A DNA stretch of 64,000 bases from Elainellaceae cyanobacterium (GTDB taxonomy: Bacteria; Cyanobacteriota; Cyanobacteriia; CAKZMO01), in assembly GCA_050331615.1 (NCBI GenBank), contig JBHJGR010000160.1, forward strand, positions 6,482 through 70,481. Reading direction: 5' to 3'. The position numbers and the translations under genes are program-made. Under the pieces are notes generated by a model. The model was not told the DNA's origin. It was given only the letters and a program-made list of their open reading frames with translations, and did no database searches. Positions 974 to 43,736 of the stretch are shown here, piece after piece. The stretch's first letter is position 1. Each line of letters opens with the position of its first letter.

Positions 974-1783
974 CTAGCGACATTGGCGGGCATTGATTTC
1001 TTGATGGGCCTCTTGTCTCAGGGCTGCCAGCATGGCGGTTGACTTTGGCTCAAACCGCCCCAAAGCAGCGTAACTCAGGAGGCCAAAGTATTCCCGAAGT
1101 GACAGAAAAGCGACCTGTGCTGAGGGCAAATATCGGGGTAGGGAAACTGGATGGGGGATCACCTTTAGGCCAAGACTTTGAAACGTCAGCGTCGCTCGCA
1201 GCATGTGGGGGGCGTCCGTCACCAGCAGAACGCGCTTGGCATCGAGGGAGTGCAGCAGCAGCGAGGTAAACAGCGCCTCTTCATAGGTGGTCATGGCGCA
1301 GTTCACCTCTTGAACCACCTGGTCCAGATCGAGGTCGGGCGACGGTGCAGCCAAATCTTTCATGAGTCGCCGGGTCTCGGTAGCGGCATAGTGGCCGACG
1401 ATGAAAATTGTGGGGGCACGCTCCTGCTGCCAGAGATCGACTGCCTCCTGGTAGCGGGCATCCTCAGGGCGGCGGCTGAGCACCACAATGGCGTCGGCGG
1501 ACTGTCCTGAGTCACGGGGCACAAACCGCATCAGGTTGTTGACCGCCAGGGAAGCCATCAGGGGTGAGGTCACCACCAGGTAAAACGCCAGCAGAGCGAG
1601 GGCCGGTTTGCTGACCCACTGCTTGAGGGCGGGCGATCGCACCAGCCAGGGCACCACGATCACCATAAGCAGAGCCATCACCACGACTGAAGGCGCTGCC
1701 AGCCCATCAAAGATGCTCCAGTTCAGCCTGGTCCAGAGGCGCGTCGGCCAGAAACTCAGACCACATATCATCCATTTGATCAT
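974..1783 (-). CDS. DUF218/YdcF(ElyC)-like envelope-associated protein
   Basis: N-terminal TM segments and a C-terminal DUF218-like domain (IVVLSRRPED..IFIVGHYAA..VLLVTDAPHMLRA). Start set at an internal ATG, because the track ORF begins with a TTG inside repeat R2. Confidence 0.5.
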   Translation of the reverse strand: MIKWMICGLSFWPTRLWTRLNWSIFDGLAAPSVVVMALLMVIVVPWLVRSPALKQWVSKPALALLAFYLVVTSPLMASLAVNNLMRFVPRDSGQSADAIVVLSRRPEDARYQEAVDLWQQERAPTIFIVGHYAATETRRLMKDLAAPSPDLDLDQVVQEVNCAMTTYEEALFTSLLLHSLDAKRVLLVTDAPHMLRATLTFQSLGLKVIPHPVSLPRYLPSAQVAFLSLREYFGLLSYAALGRFEPKSTAMLAALRQEAHQEINARQCR

Positions 1784-1820
1784 ATGAATTGACCTCAAAA
1801 GATACGCTGACAGCAGCAGT

Positions 1821-1905
1821 AAGTGCTTGAGCAATTTCAGTTACATTTTTTTGGGTGCGTCCCTTGCGGGGGGCACATCCCAAGAAAGTAATTCCGTTTA
1901 ATACT
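1821..1905 (+). repeat. R2 hairpin repeat, copy 1 (AGTGCTTGAGCAATT..TACATTTT..GGGTGCG-hairpin-..AGAAAG)
   Basis: Aligns with the copies at 3034, 4498 and 32327. Lies between the divergent DUF218 gene and the UbiA gene. Confidence 0.75.
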
Positions 1906-2083
1906 TATTCCAGCTCAGTTATAGCAACTCCGCCGTTTAGACAAGCAGAATACAGAAAAATTATTCGTTTCTTAGAAATATGCCCGGTCTTACTTTGTAG
2001 AATCATCGCGATTACCCTCTACGCTCCTTTAGATATCGCTGGTATCCTTATGGGGATGGTTTTAAGTTCACTGGGGTGGTAGC

Positions 2084-3031
2084 GTGGCTGTTTCAGCTCA
2101 TCGGAAGTTTTCCCTCGCGTCTCATATCGCTGCGCTTCGTCCCCGTCAATGGACGAAGAACTTAGTCATTTTCGCCGCGCCAATTTTTGCGTTTAGCATC
2201 AATGCTGACTCGATGCTGGGCAGCGCTTTGGCATTCGTTCTATTTTGCTCGCTGTCAAGCAGCTTCTACCTGCTCAACGATGTTGCAGACGTGGAGTCCG
2301 ATCGGCAACATCCGGTCAAGTGCAATCGCCCGATCGCCTCGGGGATGGTCAAAGTGCCGACCGCGGTCGCGATGGCCATTGTGCTGATGGCAGGAGCCCT
2401 GACCATCGGCTGGATGCAGTCGTTTGATCTGGGTCGCGTCCTCTCGGCTTATGCCGTTCTACAAATCGCCTACAACCTGAAGCTTAAGCGGACGCCCATC
2501 CTCGATATCGTGGCGATCGCCACTGGGTTTGTTCTCCGCGCCTCTGCCGGGGCCGCTGCCACCAGCATTTCCCTCTCCCCCTGGTTCCTCCTGTGTACAG
2601 CGATGCTGGCCCTGTTCCTAGGCATCGAAAAGCGCAAGGCTGAGCTGCGGCTGCTCAAAATCAAAGGCGGCAAGACCCGCTCTGTGCTGAAGCGCTATTC
2701 CCTCTCCCTGCTCACCCGCATGGAGAGTACGGTCACCACGGGGGCCGTCATGAGCTATGCCCTTTGGAGTTCAGGCCCGCTAGTCAACGGAGCCACCACC
2801 CCCTGGATGCTGATAACCCTGCCATTTGTGCTGTACGGGATCTTTCGCTACCAGCTCTTGAGCGATCCCGAGGAGCTGGAGCGCCGGACAGAAGACAGCG
2901 AACCCGGTGGTCAAACCGAGCGTCCTGAGGAAGTATTGTTGCGCGATCGCCCAATCTTGCTAACCGTCCTGGGCTGGGTGTTGACGATTCTGGTGATTCT
3001 TTGGCTCCAAAAGCAGGGCATTATCCAGTAG
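2084..3031 (+). CDS. UbiA-family prenyltransferase, decaprenyl-phosphate 5-phosphoribosyltransferase (DPPR synthase, Rv3806c)-like
   Basis: Polytopic membrane protein. The motif NDVADVESDRQHPVKCNRPIASG closely resembles the Rv3806c-type NDxxDxExDRxHPxKxxRPIAxG signature. It is followed by DprE1-like and DprE2-like genes. GTG start. Confidence 0.7.
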   Translation: MAVSAHRKFSLASHIAALRPRQWTKNLVIFAAPIFAFSINADSMLGSALAFVLFCSLSSSFYLLNDVADVESDRQHPVKCNRPIASGMVKVPTAVAMAIVLMAGALTIGWMQSFDLGRVLSAYAVLQIAYNLKLKRTPILDIVAIATGFVLRASAGAAATSISLSPWFLLCTAMLALFLGIEKRKAELRLLKIKGGKTRSVLKRYSLSLLTRMESTVTTGAVMSYALWSSGPLVNGATTPWMLITLPFVLYGIFRYQLLSDPEELERRTEDSEPGGQTERPEEVLLRDRPILLTVLGWVLTILVILWLQKQGIIQ

Positions 3032-3033
3032 AT

Positions 3034-3110
3034 GAGTGCTTGAGCAATTCTAGCTACATTTTCTCAGGGGTGCGCCCCCCAGAAAGCAATTTGGTTTCAC
3101 TACTTCAATC
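3034..3110 (+). repeat. R2 hairpin repeat, copy 2
   Basis: Begins 3 nt after the UbiA stop codon and contains the hairpin GGGGTGCGCCCCCC. Confidence 0.75.
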
Positions 3111-3126
3111 AGAGGGAATCGGTCCT

Positions 3127-4497
3127 ATGTCACTTACCGTAGAACGCCCGATTACAGGTTGGGGAAGGTATCCGGTGGTCAAGAGTGCCCTGCATCGCCC
3201 CGAGAAGGTTGCTGCCCTCCGGCAGCTCTGCCAGCAGGACGCAGGTCATTCGTCCCTGGCTCGGGGAGCTGGGCGCAGCTATGGTGATGCCGCCCTCAAC
3301 GGCAGCGGTCAAACCATCCTCACTGAACGGCTCAACCGCATGCTGGCGTTCGATGCCCAAACCGGGCGGCTGCGCTGCGAGGCGGGCGTTGCCATCAAAG
3401 AGATTCTGGATGTATTCGTCCCCAAAGGCTGGTTTCCCTCGGTGACGCCGGGCACTAAGTTTGTCACCGTGGGTGGGGCGATCGCCTTCGATGTCCACGG
3501 CAAGAACCACCACCAGGACGGCTCCTTCTGCCGCCACGTGCATCGGTTCAATCTAATCCTCGCTTCGGGAGACGTGGTGACCTGCTCCCGCGACGAAAAC
3601 CCTGACCTGTTCTGGGCCACGGTAGGCGGGCTGGGGCTGACGGGCATCATTACCGATGTGGAATTCTCCCTCCAGCCCATCGAAACAGCCTACATCAACG
3701 GGCACAACATCAAGGCCCGCAACCTGGATGAGGCGATCGCCCTATTTGATGAGTATGAGCCTCAGTACCAATATTCTGTTGCCTGGATTGACTGTCTGGC
3801 TGCAGGAGCGTCCCTGGGGCGCAGCATCCTGATGCTGGGTAACCACGCCAAAGTTGAGGATCTGAGCCCAAATCAGCGCCCCTATCCGCTGGCGCTGAAG
3901 CCCAAGCAGCGCTTCCGCGTCACCTTTGACCCGCCCGCTGGCCTGCTGAATCGATATACGATGGGCGCGTTTAACACGCTCTACTACAGCCGCCAGCTTT
4001 CCTGCGAGGTGCGGGCGATCGCCGACTACGATTCCTTCTTCTACCCGCTGGACTTCATTTGGGACTGGAACCGCCTCTACGGCAAGCGGGGGTTTGTGCA
4101 GTATCAGTGCGTTTTTCCCCCAGAGACCAGCCGCACCGGGCTAATCGAGGTGCTAGAACAGTGCAGTCGCAAAGGCTGGGGCTCATTTCTGGCCGTTCTG
4201 AAGCGGTTTGGTCCCCAGGAGGGCCTGCTGTCCTTCCCCATGCCGGGGTTCACCCTAACGCTAGACATGCCCGTGAAGCCGGGGCTGTTCGAGTTCCTAG
4301 ACGGGCTAGACCACCTGGTAATTCGCCGGGGTGGTCGGGTTTATTTGGCAAAGGACGCCCGCCTTGGCCCTGACGCCTTCCGCGCCATGTATCCCAACTA
4401 CGCTGACTGGCTGGCCATCAAGTCGCGCGTCGATCCTGCCAATCAGTTCAAATCCACTCTGTCTGAACGGCTTCAGATTGAGCCAGCTCAGTGCTAA
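3127..4497 (+). CDS. FAD-dependent oxidoreductase, DprE1-like (decaprenylphosphoryl-beta-D-ribose 2'-oxidase family)
   Basis: FAD-binding PCMH-type N-terminus carrying GAGRSYGDAAL (compare the DprE1 motif G-RSYGD), and a C-terminal GGRVYLAKDARL (DprE1-like). Start moved to the ATG at 3127, preceded by GAGGGAA; the track ORF starts at 3001 inside the UbiA gene. Confidence 0.7.
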   Translation: MSLTVERPITGWGRYPVVKSALHRPEKVAALRQLCQQDAGHSSLARGAGRSYGDAALNGSGQTILTERLNRMLAFDAQTGRLRCEAGVAIKEILDVFVPKGWFPSVTPGTKFVTVGGAIAFDVHGKNHHQDGSFCRHVHRFNLILASGDVVTCSRDENPDLFWATVGGLGLTGIITDVEFSLQPIETAYINGHNIKARNLDEAIALFDEYEPQYQYSVAWIDCLAAGASLGRSILMLGNHAKVEDLSPNQRPYPLALKPKQRFRVTFDPPAGLLNRYTMGAFNTLYYSRQLSCEVRAIADYDSFFYPLDFIWDWNRLYGKRGFVQYQCVFPPETSRTGLIEVLEQCSRKGWGSFLAVLKRFGPQEGLLSFPMPGFTLTLDMPVKPGLFEFLDGLDHLVIRRGGRVYLAKDARLGPDAFRAMYPNYADWLAIKSRVDPANQFKSTLSERLQIEPAQC

Positions 4498-4580
4498 TGC
4501 ATTAAGTGCTAACGCATAATTCATCCATCCTATGGGGGTGTGCGCCCCCAAGCAAACAACTTCGGTTACCGACTTAGAGA
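4498..4580 (+). repeat. R2 hairpin repeat, copy 3 (diverged)
   Basis: Starts immediately after the DprE1-like stop codon and contains the hairpin GGGGGTGTGCGCCCCC. Confidence 0.65.
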
Positions 4581-4611
4581 CGTTCACGCAACCTCAAGCT
4601 ACGGGACGCAT

Positions 4612-5355
4612 ATGCGGGGAAAAACAGTTCTGATTATCGGCGCAACGTCTGCCATCGCGCGATCGCTCGCCCACCAGCTGGCGCGACGGGGTGCTGCCCT
4701 TCACCTGGCCGCCCGCGATCGGGTCGAAGTGGAGCGCATCGCCAGCGACATCGCGATTCGCTACGGCGTTCCCACCTCCTGGAGTGCCGTTGAGGCAACC
4801 CGCTACGATAGCCATCCTGATTTCTTTCAACAGGTGCTGGAGCGCACGGGGCGACTGGATGGAGTGGTAGTGTCCTTGGGGGAGCTGGGCGACCAGTCGA
4901 AAGCGCAAATTGATGTGAACCATGCCCAGCGCATCATCCACTCCAACTACACGGGAGTGGTGTCTATTTTGACGCCCATCGCTAACTATCTAGAGCAGCA
5001 GGGGCAGGGCTTTGTCATCGGCATTTCCTCAGTAGCGGGCGATCGCGGTCGGCCCAGCAACTACGTCTACGGTTCGGCGAAGGCCGCCCTGAGTGCGTTT
5101 CTCCAGGGGTTGCGTGGTCGGCTAGCCAAGGCGGGGGTGCACGTCCTCACGGTGAAGCCGGGATTTGTCGATACCAAAATGACCTTCGGCAAGTCCGGGA
5201 TGTTTTTGGTGGCTAGCCCCGATCAGGTCGCCGCCCAAATTCTGCGGGCGCTGGATCGGGGTCAGAACATTGCCTACGCTCCCTGGTTTTGGTTTGCCAT
5301 CATGGCCATTATCCGCGCCGTTCCTGAATTTATCTTTAAGCGACTTAACCTGTAA
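4612..5355 (+). CDS. Short-chain dehydrogenase/reductase, DprE2-like (decaprenylphosphoryl-2-keto-ribose reductase family)
   Basis: Rossmann motif GKTVLIIGATSAIARS, active-site region NYVYGSAKAAL, and about 247 aa, which is like DprE2. Start at ATG 4612. Confidence 0.65.
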   Translation: MRGKTVLIIGATSAIARSLAHQLARRGAALHLAARDRVEVERIASDIAIRYGVPTSWSAVEATRYDSHPDFFQQVLERTGRLDGVVVSLGELGDQSKAQIDVNHAQRIIHSNYTGVVSILTPIANYLEQQGQGFVIGISSVAGDRGRPSNYVYGSAKAALSAFLQGLRGRLAKAGVHVLTVKPGFVDTKMTFGKSGMFLVASPDQVAAQILRALDRGQNIAYAPWFWFAIMAIIRAVPEFIFKRLNL

Positions 5356-6983
5356 TGACTCCACCCCAGCCCGATTCAAGGCCCGTCGTGGCCCTCTTTG
5401 ACTTCGATGGCACCCTCACCCGAGGCGACTCCTTCCTGCCGTTTTTGCGAACGATGGGCGGGCCGTGGTACTACTGGTCGCGGATTTTGCTTCTAAGCCC
5501 CGTTCTCGGCGGCTATGCCCTGAAGGTTCTATCCAACTGGAAAACCAAAGAGGCCGTCCTAACCCGCTTTATTAAAGGGCGCACCGAAGCTGAGCTAGCG
5601 CAACTGGGCGATCGCTTTGCCCACGAGGTTATTCCTAGTCTGCTGCGACCTGAGGCAGTCGAACGGCTACGCTGGCACCAGCGGCAGGGGCACCGCACCA
5701 TTTTGGTCAGCGCCTCCATTGAGGCGTACCTGATTCCCTGGGCGCAGTCAATGGGTTTCGAGCAGGTGGTGAGCAGCCGCCTGGAGTGCCGCGACGGTAC
5801 CCTCACTGGGCGACTGGTAGGACGCAACTGCTATGGCGACGAGAAGGTGGCGCGGCTCCGTGAAGTGCTGGGCGACTTCGGCCAGTACCAGATTTATGCC
5901 TATGGGGATAGTCGGGGCGATCGCGAACTCCTCGCCATTGCCGATCATGCCTACTACCGCGAATTCCCGGTTGAAAGCGAAGATGAGACGCCAGGAAATA
6001 ATCCACCCGCCGGTACACCGCCCACTAGCGGCAACTGGGAGCGGGGGCTGATGCTCTCGGTGGCGGCAGCGGCGGCCCTCTACCTGGGGCTGGTGCTCTG
6101 GAGCGGGGCCGACCAAGTGTGGCAGGCGATTGACCTGCTGCCCGTCTGGCTCATTCCGGCCATGGCGGCGATCGTGTTTTTCGGCTACTGCCTCCGCTTC
6201 ATTCGCTGGCAGTGGTATTTGGCCGCAATGGGCTACTGGGTGCCCCTGAGGGACAGCTTTCGCATCTTTTTGGCCAGCTTTGCGCTGACGGCTTCTCCTG
6301 GGAAGGCAGGCGAGTCGGTGAAATCCCTGCTGCTGAAGCGGCGCTATGACATCCCCATTGCACCTACCTTGGCGGGACTGTTCTGCGAACGCTTCACCGA
6401 TGCCCTGTCGGTGGTGCTGCTGATTTGCCTCAGCTTTTTCTCTATGTTTCGGGCGTCATGGGCGATCGCCCTGGTGGGAGCCTTTCAGCTAGTCTTCATT
6501 CTGCTGCTCCAGCACCCCGCTTTCCTGAAGCAGCGGATTCTCAAACCCCTGGCCCGCTGGTCCAAGCTAGCAAATATTCTACAGAAGGTGGAAACCCTGA
6601 TCGATAGCGCCAGCCTTCTGCTGCGTCCCAAAATTCTGCTGGGCAGCACCGCCCTCGCCCTGATTGCCTGGGGACTGGAAGGAGTTGCCTTCTACATCAT
6701 TTTTCAAAACCTGGGGGCAACCAGCGTTGGCCTCTACCAGGCGGTGCTTACCCACACCGGTTCAGGTCTCCTGGGGGCGCTGTCCATGCTGCCGGGGGGC
6801 ATTGGCAGCGCTGAAGCCCTCACCGTCAGCCTGTCGATGATGTATGGCGCGAGCCAAATTGCGGCGGTTACCGGAACGTTTCTCATCCGCCTGCTGACCC
6901 TCTGGTTCGCGGTGGCAATCGGTATCGTGGCTATGCTGTCGCTGCAGCGATCGTCACGGCACCGGGTCGGTCGCCAGTCCTAG
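5355..6983 (+). CDS. Fusion protein: HAD-IB phosphatase domain plus LPG-synthase-TM (UPF0104, flippase-like) membrane domain
   Basis: N-terminus has the HAD motif I ALFDFDGTLTRGDSF and motif IV GDSRGDRELL. A Pro/Thr-rich linker follows, then about 7 TM helices with an LPG_synthase_TM-like signature (FLASFALTASPGKAGE). Its ATG overlaps the stop codon of the upstream SDR gene. Confidence 0.6.
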   Translation: MTPPQPDSRPVVALFDFDGTLTRGDSFLPFLRTMGGPWYYWSRILLLSPVLGGYALKVLSNWKTKEAVLTRFIKGRTEAELAQLGDRFAHEVIPSLLRPEAVERLRWHQRQGHRTILVSASIEAYLIPWAQSMGFEQVVSSRLECRDGTLTGRLVGRNCYGDEKVARLREVLGDFGQYQIYAYGDSRGDRELLAIADHAYYREFPVESEDETPGNNPPAGTPPTSGNWERGLMLSVAAAAALYLGLVLWSGADQVWQAIDLLPVWLIPAMAAIVFFGYCLRFIRWQWYLAAMGYWVPLRDSFRIFLASFALTASPGKAGESVKSLLLKRRYDIPIAPTLAGLFCERFTDALSVVLLICLSFFSMFRASWAIALVGAFQLVFILLLQHPAFLKQRILKPLARWSKLANILQKVETLIDSASLLLRPKILLGSTALALIAWGLEGVAFYIIFQNLGATSVGLYQAVLTHTGSGLLGALSMLPGGIGSAEALTVSLSMMYGASQIAAVTGTFLIRLLTLWFAVAIGIVAMLSLQRSSRHRVGRQS

Positions 6984-8408
6984 CTGAGCACTGAGGTCAG
7001 CGTCGTAGACCGCTAGCTCCCAGTTTTGCGCCGCCTGAACTTGGTCGATGGTCAGCCCGGCTACCCCTTGAAAATTAGCCCCAGACAGATCGGCATCGGT
7101 TAAGTCCGCCTCTGCTAGCTTGCTGCCGCTTAAATTCGCGCCAACCAGATTGGCTCCAGCCAGGTTGGCTTGCGTGAGGTCGGCGGTTGCTAAGGTCGCC
7201 TTCAGCAAATTAGCGCACCCTGAATCTGCTAGGGAGTCTTCCCCGTTGCTCGCCTGCGTTTCATCGGCAGCAATACAGGCGAGGTCGGCGCTTTGAAGGT
7301 TGCTGTTGGCTAAGTCAGCCCGCGATAGGTCCGTACCGGTTAAATCAGCGTTGATCAGATTGGTTTCAGTGAGATCAGCTCGACTGAGATTGGCTCGACT
7401 GAGGTTGGCATCAACAAGCTTCGCGCCCCTCAAGGAGGCCCGAGTCAAATTAGCGCCACTCAGGTCACTGCTGCTGAGGATGGCGCGATTGAGGATCGTC
7501 TGGCTTAAATCGGTGCAGAGCGGTGCGGAATCGACTACTTCGGCCAGACAACCCAACTGGGCGTTTGTCAGATCAGCCGCTTCCAGGGTGGCATCGGTAA
7601 AGCTCACCCCCTGGAGCCGGGCGTCCCGTAGTTTCGATTGCTGCAGTTGGGCTCCCTGCAGCTGGGCTCCCTGCAGGTCAGCGCTCCAGAGCCCTGTGTT
7701 CTGCAGCCGGGCGTATCGCAGTTCAGCAAACGGTAGCTCGACTTTCGGCAGATGGGCATTCTGCACGTCCAACCCCCGTAGGCTAATGCAGTTGGGCATA
7801 AACCCCCCCACAACCGGCATCCTGCGAAAATCGGCGTAGCGCCAGGTACGGGGATCGAGCCAAGCGGCGGTGGGGCGCTCTTCCTCGGCTTGAATGTCCC
7901 AATAGCTACACCCCTGGTTGAGGGTTTGCAGCGCCTGAATGCGTCCGGCGTTGTCCGTGCGTCCTTCGGCACCCGTGATGATTTGCCAAGCCTGGGTGTA
8001 GGTTTCCTGTTCACGGGTATCAGCCTGGAAGATGTAGACCAAAAGCCCCAGCACAATGGTAAACTCCCCCAGCAGACGCACTGTGCGTACCGCGAAGTGT
8101 TTGACGGCTTCAACCCCCTGGGCCGACCGCTGCTGGTAGGCTTCGAACATTTGCCGATACTCATCCGTATCGATTTCAGAGGCTTTGGCAAGCTGGATTA
8201 AGCAATAGTCCCGCTCTAGGGGATCTCCAATGGCGCGGAGCCGGACAAATTCCTGGCGCAGCTTCTCCAGCCCTGTAGCGGTGAGGTTATCGAGGGAAGA
8301 TGAGGGTTCCGGCGATCGCTCCACTCCTGCATCTTCTGCCGCTGCTCCGCCAAGGGCGGGTTGGGGCTGGATGGGTTGCTTGGGATCGGAACCCGATACA
8401 TGGTCCAT
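6954..8408 (-). CDS. Pentapeptide-repeat protein with a non-repeat N-terminal domain
   Basis: Long runs of A(D/N)LxG/A pentapeptides (ANLSRADLTETNLINADLTGTDL..). Convergent with the HAD-fusion gene, overlapping it by 30 nt. Confidence 0.6.
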   Translation of the reverse strand: MDHVSGSDPKQPIQPQPALGGAAAEDAGVERSPEPSSSLDNLTATGLEKLRQEFVRLRAIGDPLERDYCLIQLAKASEIDTDEYRQMFEAYQQRSAQGVEAVKHFAVRTVRLLGEFTIVLGLLVYIFQADTREQETYTQAWQIITGAEGRTDNAGRIQALQTLNQGCSYWDIQAEEERPTAAWLDPRTWRYADFRRMPVVGGFMPNCISLRGLDVQNAHLPKVELPFAELRYARLQNTGLWSADLQGAQLQGAQLQQSKLRDARLQGVSFTDATLEAADLTNAQLGCLAEVVDSAPLCTDLSQTILNRAILSSSDLSGANLTRASLRGAKLVDANLSRANLSRADLTETNLINADLTGTDLSRADLANSNLQSADLACIAADETQASNGEDSLADSGCANLLKATLATADLTQANLAGANLVGANLSGSKLAEADLTDADLSGANFQGVAGLTIDQVQAAQNWELAVYDADLSAQLGLATDPVP

Positions 8409-8459: not shown

Positions 8460-8549
8460 TAAGTAGAACTGCGTTGAAAAACGAAGGTTAGAAAACTGGG
8501 GGAGCGCCCCGGTTTTCTAACCTGAATTTAATTGTGCCGACCTACTTAT
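8460..8549 (+). repeat. R4 MITE-like element with AAGTAG/CTACTT terminal inverted repeats, copy 1
   Basis: Internal long hairpin GGTTAGAAAAC-GGGGGAGCGCCCC-GGTTTTCTAACC. A reverse-complement copy lies at 11931-12034. Confidence 0.7.
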
Positions 8550-10417: not shown

Positions 10418-10465
10418 GGCGGTTTCAAAAAGCGGTCATCCCCTATCCCGTTAGTAGCGTCTGGT

Positions 10466-10543
10466 GTATCCGCAGATTTCGCAGATTTCGCAGATGGATG
10501 ACTTCCCTGCTCTTTATCTGCGTCCATCTGCGTCATCTGCGGA
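10466..10543 (+). repeat. R3 palindromic element (ATCCGCAGAT..GCAGAT..ATCTGCGTCATCTGCGGAT), copy 1
   Basis: Inverted halves built from CGCAGAT/ATCTGCG units. Related copies at 16089-16330 and 18723-18797. Confidence 0.7.
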
Positions 10544-10570
10544 TTGTTGTAGATTTCGAGACCTCTACCG

Positions 10571-11692: not shown

Positions 11693-11930
11693 ATAAACCG
11701 CTCTTCTGCCTGACGGTTCGAGAAAGTCATAGAGTGACCGATAAGTTTGGGGGGGCGATGCATTGGGCCGTTACATCCCGGTTGGGAGCGAAATATGTTG
11801 GCTAGATGCATCTGTTTCTCCTCGGGGAGAAGCGCCAAGTTCCAGGAGCGGCGATAGGAGGCGATCGCCCTCCCGAAACATTTCTCCCACGAGCGAATAC
11901 ACCGTAATGGTTGGCTGCTTGTGTACACTT

Positions 11931-12034
11931 AAGTAGGTCGGCACAATTAAATTCAGGTTAGAAAACCGGGGGAGCGCCCCGCTGAGGCGCTCCCCCGGTT
12001 TTCTAACCTTCGTTTTTCAACGCAGTTCTACTTA
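11931..12034 (-). repeat. R4 MITE-like element, copy 2, sitting where a bidirectional terminator would be
   Basis: Reverse complement of the copy at 8460, with an extended perfect hairpin GGGGGAGCGCCCCGCTGAGGCGCTCCCCC. Lies between the convergent App1 and glmS genes. Confidence 0.7.
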
Positions 12035-13961: not shown

Positions 13962-14228
13962 AGACAGGACTCTCCTCACCGCGATGCAGTCTATTCAACA
14001 CGATGAGCCTATTTTAGTGAACCCCCCCGCGTTTTGCTGGCGTTTTGCCTCAAATCTTGTCGCGCCAGTTCCACGCCCCTCATAAACAAATATAAAATTC
14101 AGATGTAAATTACACTGGATCAGGTAGCCAGGTAGCCATAAACAAACGAGGCTGTGGTGGGGCGCACCCCACTAGCTTTACTTACGTCCACGGACTGAAG
14201 TCCCTGCTAACACAATGCTGCTTGGGTG

Positions 14229-16088: not shown

Positions 16089-16330
16089 AGTCAGGTAGGC
16101 GGAGTTTCACGGGGTATCCTGGCAGGTATGGATTATCCGCAGATAGCGCAGATGACGCAGATGAGAGTCATCTTCGTTTCCATATCTGCGTCCATCTGCG
16201 TCATCCAGTCAGGTAGGCGGAGTTTTACCGGGTATCCTGGCAGGTATGGATTATCCGCAGATAGCGCAGATGACGCAGATAAGAGTCATCTTCGTTTCCA
16301 TATCTGCGTCCATCTGCGTCATCTGCGGAT
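16089..16330 (+). repeat. Tandem duplication (2 x ~118 bp) of an R3-family palindromic element
   Basis: The unit AGTCAGGTAGGCGGAGTTT..GGATTATCCGCAGATAGCGCAGATGACGCAGAT..ATCTGCGTCCATCTGCGTCATC occurs twice head-to-tail. The track ORF at 16128-16637 is a translation artefact of this repeat. Confidence 0.8.
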
Positions 16331-16343
16331 TAATTATCCCTCA

Positions 16344-17774: not shown

Positions 17775-18716
17775 ATGCCCCAAACCGACGAAATTCAGCC
17801 CGACAGTTTACTGGAGCGAGGCCATTTGCTCACCGAGCAGGCCAACCCCAACAGTCAGCAGCTTGACCAGCTCTCTTCCCTGGAGCTGGTGGACCTGTTT
17901 AACCGGGAAGACCAGGGCGTCATCAACGCCATCGCCCAGGCCCGCATTCCCCTGGCCCAGGCCATCGACGCGATCGCCCATTCCCTTTCCCAGGGCGGGC
18001 GGCTTTTCTACGTCGGCGCAGGCACCAGCGGACGGTTGGGAGTGCTGGATGCGGCGGAATGTCCGCCCACCTTCTGCACGCCGCCGGAGCTGGTGCAGGG
18101 CATCATTGCCGGGGGAGCTGCCGCTTTGGTGCGCAGTTCCGAGGGTCTAGAAGATCGGGCAGAAGACGGTATGGGGGCGATCGCCCACCACCAGATCACC
18201 CAGCGGGACGTGGTTGTGGGCATCACCGCAGGCGGCACCACGCCCTATGTCCACGGCGCGATTGAGGCGGCCCGACAGCGGGGGGCGACGACCATCTTCA
18301 TTGCCTGTGTGCCCGTAGAGCAGGTGAGCCTGCCGGTGGATGTGGACATTCGGCTGCTAGTGGGGCCAGAAATCCTGGCCGGGTCCACTCGCCTCAAAGC
18401 GGGCACCGCCACCAAGCTGGCCCTGAACCTGCTGTCCACCGGGGCGATGGTGAAGCTGGGCAAGGTGTATGGCAACCGCATGGTGGATGTGTCTGTCACC
18501 AACCGCAAGCTCTACGATCGCGCCCTGCGTATTCTGCAAGATTTGACCGATCTGGATCGGACTGCCGCCACCGAGCTATTGGAGCGCAGCCAGCGACGGG
18601 TGAAGCTGGCCCTGCTGATGCACTGGGCCGGGGTGGATGTGGAGGAGGGCGATCGCCTCCTAGCGGAGCATCAGGGGAACTTGAGAGGGGCGATCGCTGC
18701 CCGACAGTCTACTTAG
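17775..18716 (+). CDS. murQ: N-acetylmuramic acid 6-phosphate etherase
   Basis: SIS-domain motif RLFYVGAGTSGRLGVLDAAECPPTF and length of about 313 aa. Start at ATG 17775. Confidence 0.8.
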   Translation: MPQTDEIQPDSLLERGHLLTEQANPNSQQLDQLSSLELVDLFNREDQGVINAIAQARIPLAQAIDAIAHSLSQGGRLFYVGAGTSGRLGVLDAAECPPTFCTPPELVQGIIAGGAAALVRSSEGLEDRAEDGMGAIAHHQITQRDVVVGITAGGTTPYVHGAIEAARQRGATTIFIACVPVEQVSLPVDVDIRLLVGPEILAGSTRLKAGTATKLALNLLSTGAMVKLGKVYGNRMVDVSVTNRKLYDRALRILQDLTDLDRTAATELLERSQRRVKLALLMHWAGVDVEEGDRLLAEHQGNLRGAIAARQST

Positions 18717-18722
18717 ACCTGA

Positions 18723-18797
18723 ATATCCGCAGATTTCGCAGATTAAGCAGATTTCGGCCCATTCTCTATCTGCGTCCATCTGCGAAATCTGCGGATC
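18723..18797 (+). repeat. R3 palindromic element, copy 4
   Basis: ATATCCGCAGATTTCGCAGATTAAGCAGAT...ATCTGCGTCCATCTGCGAAATCTGCGGAT. Confidence 0.7.
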
Positions 18798-20216: not shown

Positions 20217-20349
20217 GGTGCTTGGATTCCCTAACGATCGGAAGCTTTCGACAAGTTCGAAAAATTCGACAAGTTAAATAGATAAGAATAAGATTGTCAC
20301 ATTCTCGCCCGGAACGGCTGTTTGCCTTGGGCAATTTTTACCATTAAGT

Positions 20350-20441
20350 ATGGCCCTACGGGCTAAGGTTTGAGTGTGAAACCCCCGCGTCGCGGGGGCT
20401 TCACACCTCTTAAGCGTCCTAACACGAAAGCGTAGCGCTAT
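20350..20441 (+). repeat. R1 repeat, copy 2
   Basis: ATGGCCCTACGGGCTAAGGTTTGAGTGTGAAACCCCCGCGTCGCGGGGGCTTCACACCTCTTAAGCGTCCTAACACGAAAGCGTAGCGCTAT. Confidence 0.85.
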
Positions 20442-20597
20442 CCATGGACATCAATAAGGTCGGTGGGGGTGCGCCCCCCGCCATAGCGTTGGTTGTTTAT
20501 TTATGGCTACCTGCTTAATTAGGTGAGTTTGCTAGCCTTGAGCAAGAGTAGAGGTTTGTAGGCCATTTCTGAGAAAAGTTCTACCCCCAGTGAAACG

Positions 20598-20652
20598 GTC
20601 GGTAGGGGCAAATGACCATTTGCCCTTACGTCATCGGGTAGGATCATTTTCA
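20598..20652 (+). repeat. R5 repeat, copy 2
   Basis: GGTAGGGGCAAATGACCATTTGCCCTTACG...GGGTAGGATCATTTTC. Confidence 0.55.
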
Positions 20653-20671
20653 AAAATCTCCTTAGGGCAGG

Positions 20672-21166
20672 TTAGAGCAAAAATCTGGGCGGCGTCAGCC
20701 AAAAGAGATGGCTGTGGCCGACCGGTGAGCCATTCTCAGGCAGGGTGAGACCAATCACCCCCGCTTTTTTGAGCACCACACGTTCCCTCGCCTCTCCCCA
20801 TACGAGCTGTTCGGCCCAGTTTCCCAAGTCGGGCTGATGACCCACCAAGGCAAGCGTACCATCCCAGTATTCTGGTGTTTTCGTTAACCAAGCCAGCCAA
20901 TGATCCAACCCCCCATCAGGGGCTAGGTCAGCAGTGGTTTCCAGGCGATCGCCCAACCCCACATCCTGCAAAATCTCAGCGGTCTGCCGCGCCCGCACCA
21001 GGGGGCTGGAGAGGATGAGGTGGAAGCTCAGCTCTAGCTCCCGCAGCCGCTTAGCTACCCGGCGGGTTTTGTGCTGGCCCTCGTCAGTCAAGGGGCGGTC
21101 GCCATCGTTGGCGTAGGTGCCTCGTTCGGCAGCGATGCCGTGGCGGATGAGGTAGAGGGTGATCAT
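20672..21166 (-). CDS. Histidine phosphatase superfamily protein, SixA-like phosphohistidine phosphatase
   Basis: LYLIRHGIA catalytic RHG motif and about 165 aa. Start at ATG 21166. Confidence 0.65.
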   Translation of the reverse strand: MITLYLIRHGIAAERGTYANDGDRPLTDEGQHKTRRVAKRLRELELSFHLILSSPLVRARQTAEILQDVGLGDRLETTADLAPDGGLDHWLAWLTKTPEYWDGTLALVGHQPDLGNWAEQLVWGEARERVVLKKAGVIGLTLPENGSPVGHSHLFWLTPPRFLL

Positions 21167-23606: not shown

Positions 23607-23804
23607 AATAGGTGGCGGAAGAATGCAACTGCCATGCGCTAGCAGAATCACGGTACCGGGCCAGAATGAGGCAGATATGAACCCGACGTTAAGGACGCGG
23701 AAACCCTACGGCAGGGACGCTGATGGCTGCGAACGGTCGATGCGTCACGTCGCAGAGCGTTTCAGACGGTCTCGGTTTCAAGGATGCCGTACAAGTCATG
23801 CTGT

Positions 23805-23898
23805 ATAGCCCTGCGGGCTAAGGTTTGAGTGTGGAACCTCCGCGCCGCGGGGGTTCCACACCTTTTGAATGTCCTAATGTAAAAGCGTAAAGCTATAT
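23805..23898 (+). repeat. R1 repeat, copy 3
   Basis: ATAGCCCTGCGGGCTAAGGTTTGAGTGTGGAACCTCCGCGCCGCGGGGGTTCCACACCTTTTGAATGTCCTAATGTAAAAGCGTAAAGCTATAT. Confidence 0.85.
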
Positions 23899-28971: not shown

Positions 28972-30345
28972 ATGAGTCCTATGTCATCCCACTGTTCCCT
29001 CCGCCAGGAAATTGCTGAATGCCTCCACCTCTCCCTACCTCTGGCAGGAGCACAGTTGGCCTTTGCGGCCACGGGATTCGTCGATACGGTGATGATGGGT
29101 GGCTTAGGCAGCGATTATTTGGCAGCGGGTGGCCTGGGGGCGACCACGTTCACCTCCCTGCTGGTGGTGGGCACGGGGGTGGTGTCAGCCGTCAGTCCCT
29201 TCATCGCGGAGGCATACGGTGCCCAGCAGGCTGACCGCGCCGGACGGATGATGGACCAGGGCATCTGGCTGGCGATCGCCGTGGCGCTGCCGATCACGAT
29301 CCTGTTGGGGAATGCCGCCCCGGTGCTGCGGCTCCTGGGCCAGGAGGAGACGGTGGTGCGACTGGCGGCCCAATACCTGCGGGCGATCGCCTGGGGCTAT
29401 CTGCCGGGGCTGCTGTTTGTGGTGCTGCGGAGCTTTGTTACTGCCCTGTCCCAGCCCCGGCCAGTGATTCTGATCATGGGGTTGGGCGTTGGTCTTAACG
29501 CGATCGCCAACTATATTTTGATGTACGGCAAGCTGGGACTACCGGCTCTGGGGCTGGTAGGCATCGGCTGGTCGAGCACCCTGGTGTACTGGAGCATGGG
29601 TTTTGCCCTGGTGGTTTATGTGATGCGTCAGCCCCAGTATGCGGTCTATCGTCCGTTTCGGACTGTTCATCGCTTCCAGGGGCGGCTGTTTGGGGAGCTG
29701 ATAGCGGTGGGTCTACCCATTGGGATTCTGGCTACCTTTGAAACGGGGATGTTCAGCGTGGTGACGTTCATGGCAGGGCACCTGGGCACGACGGCCCTGG
29801 CTGCCCATCAAATTGCCCTGCAAACCATCGTCATTACTTTTATGGTGCCTTTGGGTATCTCTCAGGCCATGACGGTACGCGTCGGGCAGCTCGTTGGCCG
29901 ACAGCAGGAAAGTCAGGCTCGCCGAGCGGGATACGTAGGGCTGGCGCTGGGCTTAGCCTTCATGGGAAGCATGGCCACCGTAATGCTGGTCGCGCCCCAG
30001 CTCATTGTGGCCCTCTATCTGGACATAACCCTACCCGATAACCAGGATGTGGTGCGAGGGGCGATCGCTCTACTGGCCGTGGGCGGTATCTTTCAGCTAT
30101 TTGACGGGGCTCAGGTCGTTTCTGCCGGAGCCCTAAGGGGCCTAAAGGATACCCGCATCCCCATGGTGGTTGGCGTGGTGGCCTACTGGATCGTGGGGTT
30201 GCCCAGCGGCTACCTGGGCGGATTTGTGCTGGGTCTGGGGGGCGTGGGGCTGTGGTGCGGCCTGGCGATTGGGTTGGCGATCGCTGCCATTACCCTCACT
30301 TGGCGGTTCCACCGACTCCTGGCACCCAGGTTAGACGGGTATTAA
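28972..30345 (+). CDS. MATE-family efflux transporter (NorM/DinF-like)
   Basis: Twelve TM helices in two internal 6-TM repeats, with typical MATE motifs. Start at ATG 28972. Confidence 0.75.
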   Translation: MSPMSSHCSLRQEIAECLHLSLPLAGAQLAFAATGFVDTVMMGGLGSDYLAAGGLGATTFTSLLVVGTGVVSAVSPFIAEAYGAQQADRAGRMMDQGIWLAIAVALPITILLGNAAPVLRLLGQEETVVRLAAQYLRAIAWGYLPGLLFVVLRSFVTALSQPRPVILIMGLGVGLNAIANYILMYGKLGLPALGLVGIGWSSTLVYWSMGFALVVYVMRQPQYAVYRPFRTVHRFQGRLFGELIAVGLPIGILATFETGMFSVVTFMAGHLGTTALAAHQIALQTIVITFMVPLGISQAMTVRVGQLVGRQQESQARRAGYVGLALGLAFMGSMATVMLVAPQLIVALYLDITLPDNQDVVRGAIALLAVGGIFQLFDGAQVVSAGALRGLKDTRIPMVVGVVAYWIVGLPSGYLGGFVLGLGGVGLWCGLAIGLAIAAITLTWRFHRLLAPRLDGY

Positions 30346-32321
30346 TTTGGGGTGAGCGGGGGGGGCTCAGAGGCGATCGCGCAGTCCAGCCCACTCACCG
30401 AGGTTTCCGGCCCAGCGGGTACCAGGCCAACCACATGAGGAACAGGGCGGGGCGTATACATCGTCATCGGTTCGCCTCGATAGGCGAGGGAGGTGCTTGC
30501 CCCCGAATCGAGCATGACGGCGTCGCGGAACCCCGCCTGCTGCAAAACCTCGCCCAGATCGACCGAGCCAATGCGCCCGTTGGTAATGCCAATGACGGGC
30601 TGCCCGGCCTGATTAATGCCCCAGAAAGCCCGGTGGCGCTCGGCGTCAAAGTCAAATAGGTCGCCAAAAGAAGCGGGCGATCGCGCCTGACCATCCTTCA
30701 CCAGCCAGGCTGCCCCCACAAAGGCATCGGTCACATCGGGCATCTCGGCCCGCACCCCCGCCCGGGAGTTGTGGTTTGCCGCCTCAAAGGGGATAAAGCG
30801 TACCTCGTCTGGACTGATTAGCACCAGCGGGCGACCGTTGAGCTTCAGGTTTTCCCCCGGATTGCCCGGCACAAATCGTCGGGTGTGCTGGCTCAGCACC
30901 GGACCAATCATCACGTTGGAGTCCAGGTACTTCATGGAGAAGAAGCCGCCGTCCACCACCGCCACCGCCTCGGTGCCTGCCATAATCTCTTCCACCTGGT
31001 AGCGGCTGTCGGCGTGAATTGTAATCGGTTTGCCGCCCGTCACCAGGGTCAGGGGCAGATCTTCAAAGACGGGGTGGGTCTTGCGGATGGGAGCCGTGAA
31101 GTCAAACCCGGTTCCCCAGCGGGGAGACGGAGGACCGCCCCAGGTTTCCTCAACCGCCCGCCGCAGTTGGGACTGCCCCATGCGATCCACTGCCAGCAGG
31201 CTTTGAGATGCCCCGGCAAACCGATCCTCGGCGTTGTCCATCGTCAATGCTGCCCGGTAGCCCGCCTCGGCTACCGCCTCGGCTACTCGTTCGTTGTAGT
31301 TGCCCTCGGGATAGGTGAAGTAGCGGATGGGTATCCCCAGCTCCGCTTCCAGGATGCGCTTCGACTCCACCACCTCCAGCCGCAGATCCGCATCTGTCAA
31401 ATCACGCAAATCACGGGGATGGTTGATGCTGTGGGCGGCGATAGTAACCAGCGGGTCGGCGGCCATTTCCCGGAGCTGATCCCAGTTGACTCCAGGACGG
31501 CCATGATCGCGCCCCACCTTATAGGTGTAGATGGAAAACAGCCCCGGATAGCCATACTGTTTCAACAGCGGATAGACGTGCTCGTAGTGGCCGATGTACC
31601 CGTCATCAAAGGTCAGCAGGATGGGTTTCTCGGGCAGCCCCAGCCCGGTGCGCAGGTGAGTCACTAGCTGATCCATGCTGATGGGAGTTAGCCCGTTTTC
31701 CTGAATCAGCTGGAGGTGGCTCTCAAACTCTTCCGGCGTGACGTCAAAGAAAACCTCTTTGACCGGCAGGATATCGTGATACATCATTACGGGCACCTTG
31801 GCCAGTCGCGCCTGCTCATGCAGGTCGGGCCAGGGGGCGGCGGAGAAGGAGGCCACCAGTTTGGGGCCGAGGCCCTGCATCATCGACTCCAGACCCATCT
31901 CGGGAGACTGTACCCAGGTCGCCACCTCGACGGCCTGGCGGGCAACGCCATTGAGCACGGCGGGAACGGCCACTTCGGGAGGACGACACACTGCCTGGGC
32001 TGGGTCATCAATATCTGGGTCGGCACCGTCGAGTTCCGTACTGCCTGAGCTGGGGTAGGTCGGACGGCTAAAGCTGGCTAGCAGGGAAGGGGCATTGGCT
32101 GGTTCGCGTGGGATGGCGGTTCCCCCCATTACAGCGATCGGGGTTGCTGCCGGAGCAACGGTTGCCAGGACGCCAGTAGGGGCGAGGAGGGTAATTAGCC
32201 CCAAGCTGGCGCAGATACGGGGCCAGAGGGTGCGATCGCCCTTAGCAACATCGGCATTCATTGAGTGGGGCACAGTCGAGGGTTGAGCGGAGGATGGCTT
32301 CACAGTGAATCCCATGAACAA
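30342..32321 (-). CDS. Polysaccharide deacetylase (NodB/CE4) fused to a C-terminal phosphodiester-glycosidase (NAGPA-like) domain
   Basis: NodB motifs (LLTFDDGYIGHYEHVYPLL, AAHSINHP), followed by a roughly 250-aa NAGPA-like domain. N-terminal signal/TM. Start is ambiguous: TTG at 32321 or ATG at 32315. Confidence 0.6.
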   Translation of the reverse strand: MFMGFTVKPSSAQPSTVPHSMNADVAKGDRTLWPRICASLGLITLLAPTGVLATVAPAATPIAVMGGTAIPREPANAPSLLASFSRPTYPSSGSTELDGADPDIDDPAQAVCRPPEVAVPAVLNGVARQAVEVATWVQSPEMGLESMMQGLGPKLVASFSAAPWPDLHEQARLAKVPVMMYHDILPVKEVFFDVTPEEFESHLQLIQENGLTPISMDQLVTHLRTGLGLPEKPILLTFDDGYIGHYEHVYPLLKQYGYPGLFSIYTYKVGRDHGRPGVNWDQLREMAADPLVTIAAHSINHPRDLRDLTDADLRLEVVESKRILEAELGIPIRYFTYPEGNYNERVAEAVAEAGYRAALTMDNAEDRFAGASQSLLAVDRMGQSQLRRAVEETWGGPPSPRWGTGFDFTAPIRKTHPVFEDLPLTLVTGGKPITIHADSRYQVEEIMAGTEAVAVVDGGFFSMKYLDSNVMIGPVLSQHTRRFVPGNPGENLKLNGRPLVLISPDEVRFIPFEAANHNSRAGVRAEMPDVTDAFVGAAWLVKDGQARSPASFGDLFDFDAERHRAFWGINQAGQPVIGITNGRIGSVDLGEVLQQAGFRDAVMLDSGASTSLAYRGEPMTMYTPRPVPHVVGLVPAGPETSVSGLDCAIASEPPPLTPN

Positions 32322-32326
32322 TCGGG

Positions 32327-32403
32327 TAAGTGCTTGAGCACAATTAATTACATTTTCTTGGGGGTGCCCCCCAAGAAAATAATTTTTTTAACTACTCAAG
32401 AGG
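32327..32403 (+). repeat. R2 hairpin repeat, copy 4
   Basis: GTAAGTGCTTGAGCACAATTAATTACATTTTCTTGGGGGTGCCCCCCAAGAAAATAAT. Confidence 0.75.
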
Positions 32404-37620: not shown

Positions 37621-37781
37621 AAGACTTCTCAATGTATGGCAGTGGATGCATCGTCCTGGAAAGGGCTTGACGGTACACATTTCACTTAGCCACGCGGGGG
37701 AGAAAAATCCGGAGGGTTATTCTTTAGGCTGCAGTTTTTTCACAGACCCGCCCTTTTCTTGAAGTCAGCTTGATTCGTGGG

Positions 37782-37874: not shown

Positions 37875-37962
37875 ATTTGGTACGGGCGCATTATCGATCG
37901 CCTCAAATCAAGCTAGGATGCTAGGTGCCTGTCTAAATCTCCAACGGGGTTTTCGGACAGAT

Positions 37963-43732: not shown

Positions 43733-43736
43733 TAGG

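Follow-up and report, generated by a model that had tools for sequence, protein, structure and literature searches.

The window, a 64 kb stretch of DNA (64,000 nucleotides), carries near its start a gene cluster in which Pfam recognised DUF218 (- strand), UbiA, FAD_binding_4/ALO (the DprE1-like protein), SDR and HAD+LPG_synthase_TM domains, in agreement with the gene calls of the original prediction. Junctions of this cluster hold a short repeat, R2, of which four copies were located in the window by nhmmer with a profile built from these same copies, all of them on the + strand. They are given here without their flanking dinucleotides:

1822-1905, + strand: R2 copy 1, long form, 84 nt, flanked by TA (1820-1821) and TA (1906-1907)
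3035-3104, + strand: R2 copy 2, short form, 70 nt, flanked by TG (3033-3034) and TC (3105-3106)
4505-4574, + strand: R2 copy 3, decayed short form, 70 nt, flanked by TA (4503-4504) and TA (4575-4576)
32329-32396, + strand: R2 copy 4, short form, 68 nt, flanked by TA (32327-32328) and CA (32397-32398)

Copy 1 occupies the divergent DUF218/UbiA intergenic region, copy 2 lies between the UbiA stop codon (3029-3031) and the DprE1-like start (3127), and copy 3 between the DprE1-like stop codon (4495-4497) and the SDR start (4612). The gene adjoining copy 4 is on the - strand and encodes a polysaccharide deacetylase/NAGPA domain; the copy is antisense to it, 11 nt upstream of its conserved ATG (32315-32313), which agrees with the opposite orientation already described for this envelope-polysaccharide gene. 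Copy 4 had also been called the only one outside the cluster, which is correct inside the window but not on the source contig, which has a fifth, diverged copy (L024:669-741) 5.7 kb before the window begins. With five copies spread over 70.4 kb, the chance of finding three within 2.76 kb is about 0.04-0.07, so the clustering is only mildly unusual, and local reinsertion or a permissive operon are guesses at its cause.

The repeat is real, and three copies matching its first description were recovered by three routes: exact matching (AGTGCTTGAGCAATT is exact at 1822 and 3035, with 3 mismatches at 32329), a repeat search that put 1819, 3032 and 32326 into one family (D6), and an independent profile built only from copies of another genome (1820-1902, E=2e-18; 3034-3105, E=1.3e-13; 32327-32397, E=1.6e-13). 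On copy 3 this profile gave a weak match confined to the right half (4532-4575, E=0.001), and identity to the consensus arms was 71% there compared with 87-92% in the other window copies. This decayed sequence is still a real R2 copy, because the closest relative's orthologous junction lacks some 79 nt that are inserted here, and because it has the family termini AGTGCT...GACT flanked by TA...TA; the copy first placed at 4498 thus stands, with its coordinates corrected to 4505-4574.

A terminator scan of positions 1500-5000 found nothing at any R2 copy there, as expected from the reported lack of a T-tract after the hairpin, and a rho-independent terminator was rejected because the GC-rich hairpins have no directly following U-tract. 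Reading the sequence, we saw a T-run at copy 4 only, beginning 5 nt past its stem. No sigma-70-like promoter was detected in the same interval (1500-5000), and an NtcA-type or sigma-70 promoter composed by eye from TTGAGC / TACATT was discarded since the spacings do not fit. Rfam 15 gave zero gathering-threshold matches across the whole window and, in E-value mode over 1700-4700, a single hit, to Chlorobi-1 within the UbiA gene, which is put down to chance; a tRNA/tmRNA scan found none.

Architecture and folding of R2

R2 is 68-90 nt long and non-coding (no ORF fits inside it), and is an imperfect whole-length palindrome around a GC-rich centre. The left end reads AGTGCTTGAGCAA... and the right end ...TT(A/G)AACTACT, giving terminal inverted repeats of ~13-15 nt (the reverse complement of the right end being AGTAGTTAA(A/G)CAA), inside which lie the inner arms AATTACATTTTCTTGGGG / CCCCAAGAAAGTAATT and, at the centre, a GC-rich hairpin in a short or an extended form. 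When the whole-length hairpin was imposed by hand, 85.8% of alignment cells were paired, against 40-54% with the partners slid, and the outer helix (columns 1-15 with 82-97) reached 86.5%; RNAalifold on 16 copies returned hairpin fragments only. Conservation of structure across copies, a check proposed alongside the original prediction, did not emerge from the covariation analysis: 28 of 500 shuffles reached the covariation score of R2 and 274 of 500 reached its number of pairs changed on both sides. Covariation is therefore not above shuffles and gives no evidence for selection on R2 structure after insertion.

Intact copies fold well (z of -3.7 to -6.3). Copy 1 forms the whole-length hairpin (-28.8 kcal/mol, z=-3.7) and copy 4 a central hairpin of 13 bp (-24 kcal/mol, z=-4.6). 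In copies 2 and 3, inside the operon, most of the pairing is gone, and their folds are no more stable than those of shuffled sequence (z=-0.22 and z=-0.98, respectively).

Filled and empty sites in close relatives

In the closest relative, MAG JAYKGU01, the cluster is syntenic and the DprE1-like protein is 91% identical. Copy 1 is the sole window copy shared with an orthologous site there (L027:8740-8826). No copy occupies the UbiA/DprE1-like, DprE1-like/SDR or deacetylase-upstream site, as judged from blastn breakpoints (L027 9974-11358 = window 3102-4487), the sequences themselves and the alignment; the UbiA/DprE1-like gap measures 27 nt in the MAG versus 95 nt in the window, and the DprE1-like/SDR spacer 35 nt with no element. 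The three copies of the cluster are one old, shared insertion and two lineage-specific ones. The empty copy 4 locus aligns as CTC-TA-GCGACC. At copy 2, which is flanked by TG...TC, the MAG's empty site reads TC, and no clean TA target can be reconstructed.

At ndhE-nadK, the filled site in JAYKGU01 (locus L013) reads AAGTGG-TA-[AGTGC...88 nt...CTACT]-TA-GTAGCGTGCAG, and two empty sites read AAGTGG-TA-GCGGCGTGCAG (L038) and AAGTGG-TA-GAGCCGTGCAG (L042). Here R2 entered one TA precisely and duplicated it, and ndhE, which stops with TAG where the element is absent, stops with TAA where it is present. Another copy, at ndhG-ndhE in L038, is missing from JAYKGU01; R2 copies have been gained independently in sister lineages. 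Of 16 trimmed copies, 13 have TA as the left flanking dinucleotide and eight have it as the right one, most of the others being one base off. Copies survive in intergenic spacers, often at the TA of, or adjoining, a stop codon.

A pattern scan of 185,579 species-representative genomes gave 13 matches in a single MAG (JAYKGU01) and only chance matches elsewhere; presence in one other genome in so large a set argues for lineage restriction. By nhmmer, 12 of the 13 were strong, the exception (L021, cut by the locus end) reaching only E=0.0026. The eight matches of a metagenome pattern scan are all attributed to chance, since the R2 profile recognised none of them, and blastn with the long form of the R2 consensus found no match in a plasmid collection. 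JAYKGU01 holds at least 14 copies in both orientations, next to unrelated genes (nirA, ndhE/nadK, tgt, P-type ATPase, NRPS-like genes and others). Pfam assignments for R2-flanking genes were similarly diverse (GH15/Band_7, NIR_SIR/PRK, Peptidase_S8, NUDIX/PMT_2, TGT, ShlB, NdhE/NAD kinase, P-type ATPase/FecCD, HEAT/SpoU, AMP-binding and sulfotransferase), and copies between co-directional genes were sense in five cases and antisense in four. The supposed bias toward polysaccharide genes was thus not borne out, R2 flanks elsewhere being mostly unrelated to the envelope.

Probable transposition in trans and competing explanations

R2 is very probably a TA-duplicating family of very short MITEs (non-autonomous DNA transposons) mobilised in trans, and so an ordinary parasite rather than an envelope signal. 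It is short, multi-copy and non-coding, with terminal inverted repeats, a target-site duplication and presence/absence polymorphism; the suggestion of a MITE that spread is upheld by these repeats, by the TA duplication, by filled and empty sites in close relatives and by the copies beside unrelated genes. Insertion is TA-specific with a 2-bp TA duplication, as in IS630/Tc1-mariner elements, and we infer from this duplication alone that a transposase of that type acts in trans. Such a DDE transposase would recognise the shared termini and cut and paste R2; that a copy integrates into a TA dinucleotide and duplicates it is shown by the filled and empty sites. In 226 kb of cyanobacterial sequence, a search for a transposase or autonomous element with matching ends, in the form of TAAGTRS/SYACTTA end pairs spaced by 0.9-2.5 kb, returned chance pairs only, none enclosing a credible ORF. 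The position of R2 at gene junctions would be explained by the concentration of TA-rich targets there in a 57% GC genome, together with selection removing insertions from coding sequence, and any effect on operon mRNA would be a by-product rather than the cause of its presence.

Two further families of small elements reside in the window:

8460-8548: R3, a small palindromic element distinct from R2, with the same termini as R2 (TA-AGTAG...CTACT-TA)
11930-12034: second R3 copy, in the opposite orientation to the first
38061-38134: R5, another small element, whose termini are TAAGTAG...GTACTTA and which has a GGGGCGCGCACCC hairpin at its centre

The relative's site orthologous to the R3 copy at 8460-8548 is empty, with a single TA, and this filled/empty pair likewise shows TA duplication. 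A decayed R5 relative lies at about 14120-14175, an R3 lies within the TA of an R2 right end at locus L008, and locus L015 contains an R2/R5 chimera. Because R2, R3 and R5 have the same AGTRS...SYACT ends, one enzyme probably moves all three co-resident families. A more far-reaching proposal, that they constitute a single TA-duplicating MITE superfamily of unusually short elements (68-105 nt) with 5-nt termini in common, still active in this uncultured Elainellaceae lineage and retained because residual GC hairpins tune the operons whose spacers are hit (UbiA/DprE1-like/SDR and ndhG/ndhE/nadK), either by altering the stability of mRNA segments or by coupling translation of the genes on either side, seems unlikely.

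Equally doubtful is that the operon copies were co-opted as RNA elements (acting on stability, read-through attenuation or RNase sites) that tune the UbiA/DprE1-like/SDR ratio. Precedents exist in REP/BIME, ERIC and Correia elements (PMC10969869, PMC3049150), and copies 2 and 3 are placed as such elements might be: sense, in short spacers of a co-directional row where they would be transcribed, with start-proximal sequences and gene ends intact and a short GC stem persisting. However, the closest relative runs the same operon with element-free spacers of 27 and 35 nt, copies 2 and 3 belong with the most decayed ones, and R2 offers neither covariation beyond shuffles nor a U-tract or Rfam match. 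The original idea of an RNA element shared by envelope-glycan operons is likewise unsupported, the relative lacking both internal copies and the deacetylase copy, the internal copies folding like shuffles (z of -0.2 and -1.0) and the orientation to transcription being mixed.

It is very unlikely that R2 is a REPIN/REP doublet or an IS200/IS605-type palindrome that a tyrosine (HUH) transposase such as RAYT mobilises in single-stranded form. HUH transposition is not known to leave a target duplication, and the precise 2-bp TA duplication, evident for R2 and R3 alike when filled and empty sites are compared, speaks against such an origin. Moreover, the half-elements of R2 are not themselves palindromic REPs or stem-loops, and no Y1 transposase or RAYT gene was seen flanked by R2 repeats. 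These observations outweigh the whole-length hairpin, the GTAG/CTAC near the termini of the R2 right end and the sister families, the several G-T wobbles that make the + strand of R2 fold better than its complement, a TnpB (OrfB_IS605) gene near one orthologous site in JAYKGU01, and the occurrence of GTAG-tagged REPs in cyanobacteria (PMC3733652).

Least credible is a shared cis-regulatory DNA site (promoter or transcription-factor operator) defining an envelope-glycan regulon: copies 1 and 4 do directly precede genes on the - strand, AAGTGCTTGAGCAATT at the left end reads as a 12/16 palindrome and Correia-type MITEs can carry promoters (PMC10969869), but the scan gave no sigma-70-like promoter, no - strand gene is there for copies 2 and 3 to control, JAYKGU01 has functionally unrelated genes next to its copies, and of the four sites in the window it has three without the element.

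With R2 read as a trans-mobilised MITE family, the lead to a regulatory or RNA signal common to envelope-glycan operons is closed. The general understanding of MITEs is unchanged by R2. In this lineage, R2 and its sister families can break assemblies, inflate intergenic distances and supply or alter stop codons (as in ndhE, TAG to TAA). The filled and empty sites are usable as strain and lineage typing markers, and clean pairs of them give exact ends with which to seek the matching IS630-type transposase.

Comparison with known elements

IS630/Tc1-mariner elements, including the cyanobacterial ISY100 (ISTcSa), use TA for nearly all of their insertions and duplicate it (PMC2170065). ISY100 and R2 have in common the TA target, its duplication and the host phylum; R2, however, encodes nothing, and the likeness is one of target choice and footprint. 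The 107-bp pneumococcal MITE RUP has terminal inverted repeats resembling those of IS630-Spn1, and a survey of pneumococcal repeats found that the functional class of flanking genes was not informatively linked to them (PMC3049150). Like RUP, R2 is short, non-coding, highly base-paired, many-copy and intergenic, and its TA duplication implicates the IS630 family, the one that the RUP ends resemble. The two share no sequence similarity, and R2 is shorter (68-90 nt) with a GC-rich central hairpin in a 57% GC cyanobacterial host.

R2 may also be likened to Correia (Neisseria), ERIC and Chunjie (Geobacter) elements, MITEs that are co-transcribed with genes; Correia elements also duplicate TA. Demonstrated RNA and promoter functions belong to Correia and ERIC (promoters, IHF sites or RNase III/E cleavage; PMC10969869), whereas the operon copies of R2 are without most of their pairing.

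GTAG-tagged REP/REPIN sequences (RAYT-associated) and R2 are alike in being palindromic, extragenic and sometimes a source of stop codons, and GTAG/CTAC occurs close to the termini of R3 and R5 and to the right end of R2. REPs are not known to make a target duplication, whereas R2 and R3 duplicate TA. In addition, the halves of R2 and R3 are not stem-loops, unlike REPs, which are short stem-loops with an unpaired GTAG tag (PMC3733652).

In class and phylum, R2 corresponds to Nezha (Anabaena/Nostoc, 130-170 bp), the mobility of which was likewise argued by comparing close relatives at orthologous positions with and without the element (PMC3184786), and to MaeMITEa-h (Microcystis, 150-435 bp). 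R2 is about half their size and, occurring in only one other genome in the pattern scan, is a separate, lineage-restricted family.

Copies and anatomy of R2

The small repeat R2, originally noticed at junctions of the UbiA/DprE1-like cluster, is real: exact matches to AGTGCTTGAGCAATT stand at 1822 and 3035 and one with three mismatches at 32329, and a repeat search of the window placed these three sites in one family (D6). A profile made from the four window copies returned those four only in the 64 kb, all on the + strand, and a window-independent profile built solely from copies of another genome recovered copies 1, 2 and 4 (E = 2e-18 to 1.6e-13). Copy 3, predicted at 4498, was matched over its right half only (E = 0.001), with a consensus-arm identity of 71% versus 87-92% in the other window copies; comparison with the closest relative, the MAG JAYKGU01 (GCA_035285585.1, 'Synechococcales cyanobacterium 1108005'), shows that it is a genuine but decayed copy, its limits now corrected to 4505-4574. 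The predicted gene row around the UbiA and DprE1-like genes was borne out by Pfam.

R2 copies on the source contig and neighbouring genes (copy limits exclude flanking dinucleotides)
L024:669-741 (upstream extension of the contig): fifth R2 copy, diverged, between a RidA-like gene and an isochorismatase gene
974-1783, - strand: DUF218 (Pfam)
1822-1905, + strand: R2 copy 1, left flank TA, right flank TA
2084-3031: UbiA (Pfam)
3035-3104, + strand: R2 copy 2, left flank TG, right flank TC
3127-4497: DprE1-like oxidase, FAD_binding_4/ALO (Pfam)
4505-4574, + strand: R2 copy 3, left flank TA, right flank TA
4612-5355: SDR (Pfam)
5355-6983: HAD+LPG_synthase_TM fusion (Pfam)
30342-32315, - strand: polysaccharide deacetylase/NAGPA gene
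32329-32396, + strand: R2 copy 4, left flank TA, right flank CA

The contig is also present in Logan runs SRR6462997 and SRR6462999 and as JGI Ga0316160_138744, which reaches 6.4 kb upstream of the window. Three of the five copies in 70.4 kb lie within 2.76 kb (P ~0.07 over intergenic TA sites, 0.04 over all positions), a clustering that is mildly unusual, not compelling. A 15-nt near-tandem duplication at 4490-4519 (AGTGCTAATGCATTA then AGTGCTAACGCATAA) runs across the stop codon of the DprE1-like gene (4495-4497) into the left end of copy 3, whose atypical left arm resembles its flank; slippage or conversion could have produced it. The C-terminus of the DprE1-like protein is of equal length in the window and the MAG. 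The gene row at 2084-6983 is kept in more distant cyanobacteria (L028, L029; DprE1-like protein 73% identical), where it is tightly packed or overlapping and includes an additional 518-aa gene. The cluster resembles a decaprenyl-phospho-sugar-type pathway widespread in cyanobacteria.

Alignment of the window copies with those of another genome gave the consensus TA-AGTGCTTGAGCAATTTTAATTACATTTTCTTGGGG-(GC-rich centre)-CCCCAAGAAAGTAATTTTGTTTAACTACT-TA. This is an imperfect palindrome over its whole length, with outer arms AGTGCTTGAGCAA / TT(A/G)AACTACT, inner arms AATTAC..TTTTCTTGGGG / CCCCAAGAAA.GTAATT, and a centre of one of two forms, each seen in both genomes: short (GTGCGC; elements of 68-72 nt) or drawn out into an extended hairpin (elements of 84-90 nt). 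When this hairpin was imposed on 16 copies, paired cells amounted to 85.8%, versus 40-54% when partners were slid by 1-3 columns, but covariation, a check proposed originally, was not above shuffles; the palindrome therefore goes back to the family founder, with no visible upkeep after insertion. Intact copies gave much stronger folds than shuffled sequence (copy 1, z=-3.7; copy 4, z=-4.6; one MAG copy, z=-6.3), and the operon copies no stronger ones (copy 2, z=-0.22; copy 3, z=-0.98). No Rfam family matched R2 (whole window and 1700-4700), and a scan of 1500-5000 gave no promoter-like or terminator-like sites at the copies.

Filled and empty sites

We compared the window with the MAG, which has a 91% identical DprE1-like protein. 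Positions 1 to about 11700 of the window are syntenic with MAG contig L027, and the blastn blocks end exactly at R2 elements.

Blastn blocks between L027 and the window
L027 8740-9972 = window 1820-3030: begins at copy 1, skips nothing
L027 9974-11358 = window 3102-4487: 71 window nt versus 1 MAG nt skipped (copy 2)
L027 11380-13889 = window 4588-7094: 100 window nt versus 21 MAG nt skipped (copy 3)

The UbiA/DprE1-like spacer is 27 nt in the MAG versus 95 nt in the window, and the DprE1-like/SDR spacer 35 versus 114 nt; the coding ends and start-proximal sequences flanking copies 2 and 3 are conserved between the two. Copy 1 is older than the split of the two lineages, because it has a MAG counterpart at the orthologous place (L027:8740-8826). 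The copy 4 site is empty in the MAG (...CCCTC-TA-GCGACCG...) and filled in the window (reverse strand, ...CTCT-TG-[AGTAG...GCACT]-TA-CCCGATTG...). The MAG has a TnpB-type gene (L043:515-1678; HTH_OrfB_IS605, OrfB_IS605, Cas12f1-like_TNB) adjoining a DUF4079 gene, upstream of its deacetylase locus; this TnpB-type gene is absent from the corresponding window place.

The cleanest filled/empty pair is the ndhE-nadK junction.

Filled and empty ndhE-nadK junctions
L013 (MAG), filled: AAGTGG-TA-[AGTGCTTGAGC...88 nt...TTAACTACT]-TA-GTAGCGTGCAG
L038, empty: AAGTGG-TA-GCGGCGTGCAG
L042 (third genome), empty: AAGTGG-TA-GAGCCGTGCAG

Locus L038 was taken from run SRR6462999, where the window's contig is found too, and its coding DNA is 84-86% identical to the MAG, a level equal to that of window versus MAG. 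With one TA at the empty sites versus TA on both sides when filled, R2 thus entered the ndhE stop codon at its TA, which was duplicated. That stop is TAG at the empty site (L038:418-420) and TAA at the filled one (L013:5028-5030), because the first base of R2, following the duplicated TA, is A; an element resembling R5, another small palindromic family, likewise provides the upstream gene's TAA stop at L027:1076-1078. The reverse case is an R2 copy between ndhG and ndhE in L038, which the MAG lacks. Insertions unique to each show that R2 was active in both lineages after their split.

Distribution among genomes and genes

A pattern scan (AGTGCTTGAGCA-N8-TACATTT) of 185,579 species, each represented by a single genome, gave 13 matches in JAYKGU01 and 10 scattered over unrelated phyla. 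By the R2 profile, 12 of the JAYKGU01 matches are strong copies, and no scattered match is recognised; the remaining JAYKGU01 match (L021) is cut by the locus end (E=0.0026). All eight matches in the metagenome collection were due to chance, and the plasmid collection contained none. Found in two related genomes only, R2 is a new family of a familiar kind, restricted to its lineage.

By Pfam, the MAG copies have functionally mixed neighbours (GH15 / Band_7; nitrite/sulfite reductase / PRK; subtilase; NUDIX / PMT_2; TGT; ShlB; NdhE / NAD kinase; P-type ATPase / FecCD; HEAT / SpoU methylase; AMP-binding enzymes; sulfotransferase), two or three at most being envelope-related, and show no bias towards envelope-polysaccharide genes. 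All copies are intergenic, or overlap no more than a stop codon or a questionable extension of an N-terminus. Of those with co-directional genes on both sides, five are sense (window copies 2 and 3, L024:669, L013, L038) and four antisense (window copy 4, L007, L008, L015). An RNA processing or stability element of envelope-glycan operons, one of two readings originally offered, is unsupported because in the sister genome the same operon lacks the internal copies, which in the window have lost their structure; their residual GC stems may affect the operon mRNA as a by-product.

Related repeats and proposed mobilisation

Two further families share their termini with R2.

R3 and R5 elements in the window, ends TA-AGTAG...CTACT-TA
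8460-8548: R3, small palindrome
11930-12034: R3, small palindrome
38061-38134: R5, a different small palindrome

The R3 site at 8460 is filled in the window (AAGGAC-TA-[...]-TA-TTTCGC) and empty in the MAG (AAGAAG-TA-TTTCAGG). In L008, an R3 occupies the TA at the right end of an R2 (AAC-TA-[R3]-TA-CTGA), and L015 carries a chimera of R2 (left) and R5 (right). The shared ends and TA duplication suggest that one transposase serves R2, R3 and R5.

Other small repeats were also present. By far the commonest in the window are ten ~90-95 nt palindromes, in both orientations, with ends TATAGC...GCTATA and a central GC hairpin, found in the MAG too (L006:5298-5393, L007:3694-3788; up to 96% identical). 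A further family, with ends GGAGATTTTTGA...AAATCTCC (window 20560-20681), directly abuts R2 on either side in 4 of 14 MAG cases, which suggests nested or targeted insertion among small elements.

Other repeat copies
TATAGC repeat, copies 1-5: 861-954, 20349-20438, 23804-23893, 37781-37870, 37962-38051
TATAGC repeat, copies 6-10: 43642-43735, 52569-52662, 55446-55539, 57695-57788, 59227-59316
GGAGATTTTTGA...AAATCTCC family in the MAG: L001:2612-2724, L006:7561-7650, L007:6824-6903, L027:8636-8725

Repeats rich in the heptamers CGCAGAT / ATCTGCG (10450-10545, 16089-16331, 18707-18797), including a tandem pair of a 117-nt unit at 16089-16323 (97% identical), are reminiscent of cyanobacterial short tandemly repeated heptamers (STRR). 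The window is cyanobacterial DNA, with 57% GC and 127 occurrences of GCGATCGC. The RidA/isochorismatase junction holds the decayed R2 in the source contig (L024:669-741) versus an R5-like element in the MAG (L027:1076-1167, TAAGTG...CCTACTTA); the two are hardly alignable, and either this spacer was hit independently in each or one element has diverged extremely.

R2 is small and non-coding, has inverted-repeat ends and duplicates a TA target at filled versus empty sites; copies were gained in sister lineages and older ones decay. Having every generic MITE feature that could be tested, plus the IS630 hallmark, R2 is a MITE, the other reading originally offered and the right one. IS630/Tc1-mariner elements, cyanobacterial ISY100 among them, use TA as nearly their sole target and duplicate it, by cut-and-paste (PMC2170065), and MITEs bearing ends of this type are believed to be mobilised in trans, as in RUP with IS630-Spn1 (PMC3049150). 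A transposase of this type would move R2; none was found in 226 kb of cyanobacterial sequence. HUH-type mobilisation (RAYT or IS200/IS605) is disfavoured because it is not known to duplicate its target, whereas TA is duplicated at R2 sites. Placement at gene junctions would follow from target availability, TA being scarce outside stop codons and spacers at this GC content, and selection against genic insertions would account for the rest of the bias. R2 behaves like RUP, Nezha, Correia and further bacterial MITEs (PMC3184786, PMC10969869) and has no sequence in common with them.
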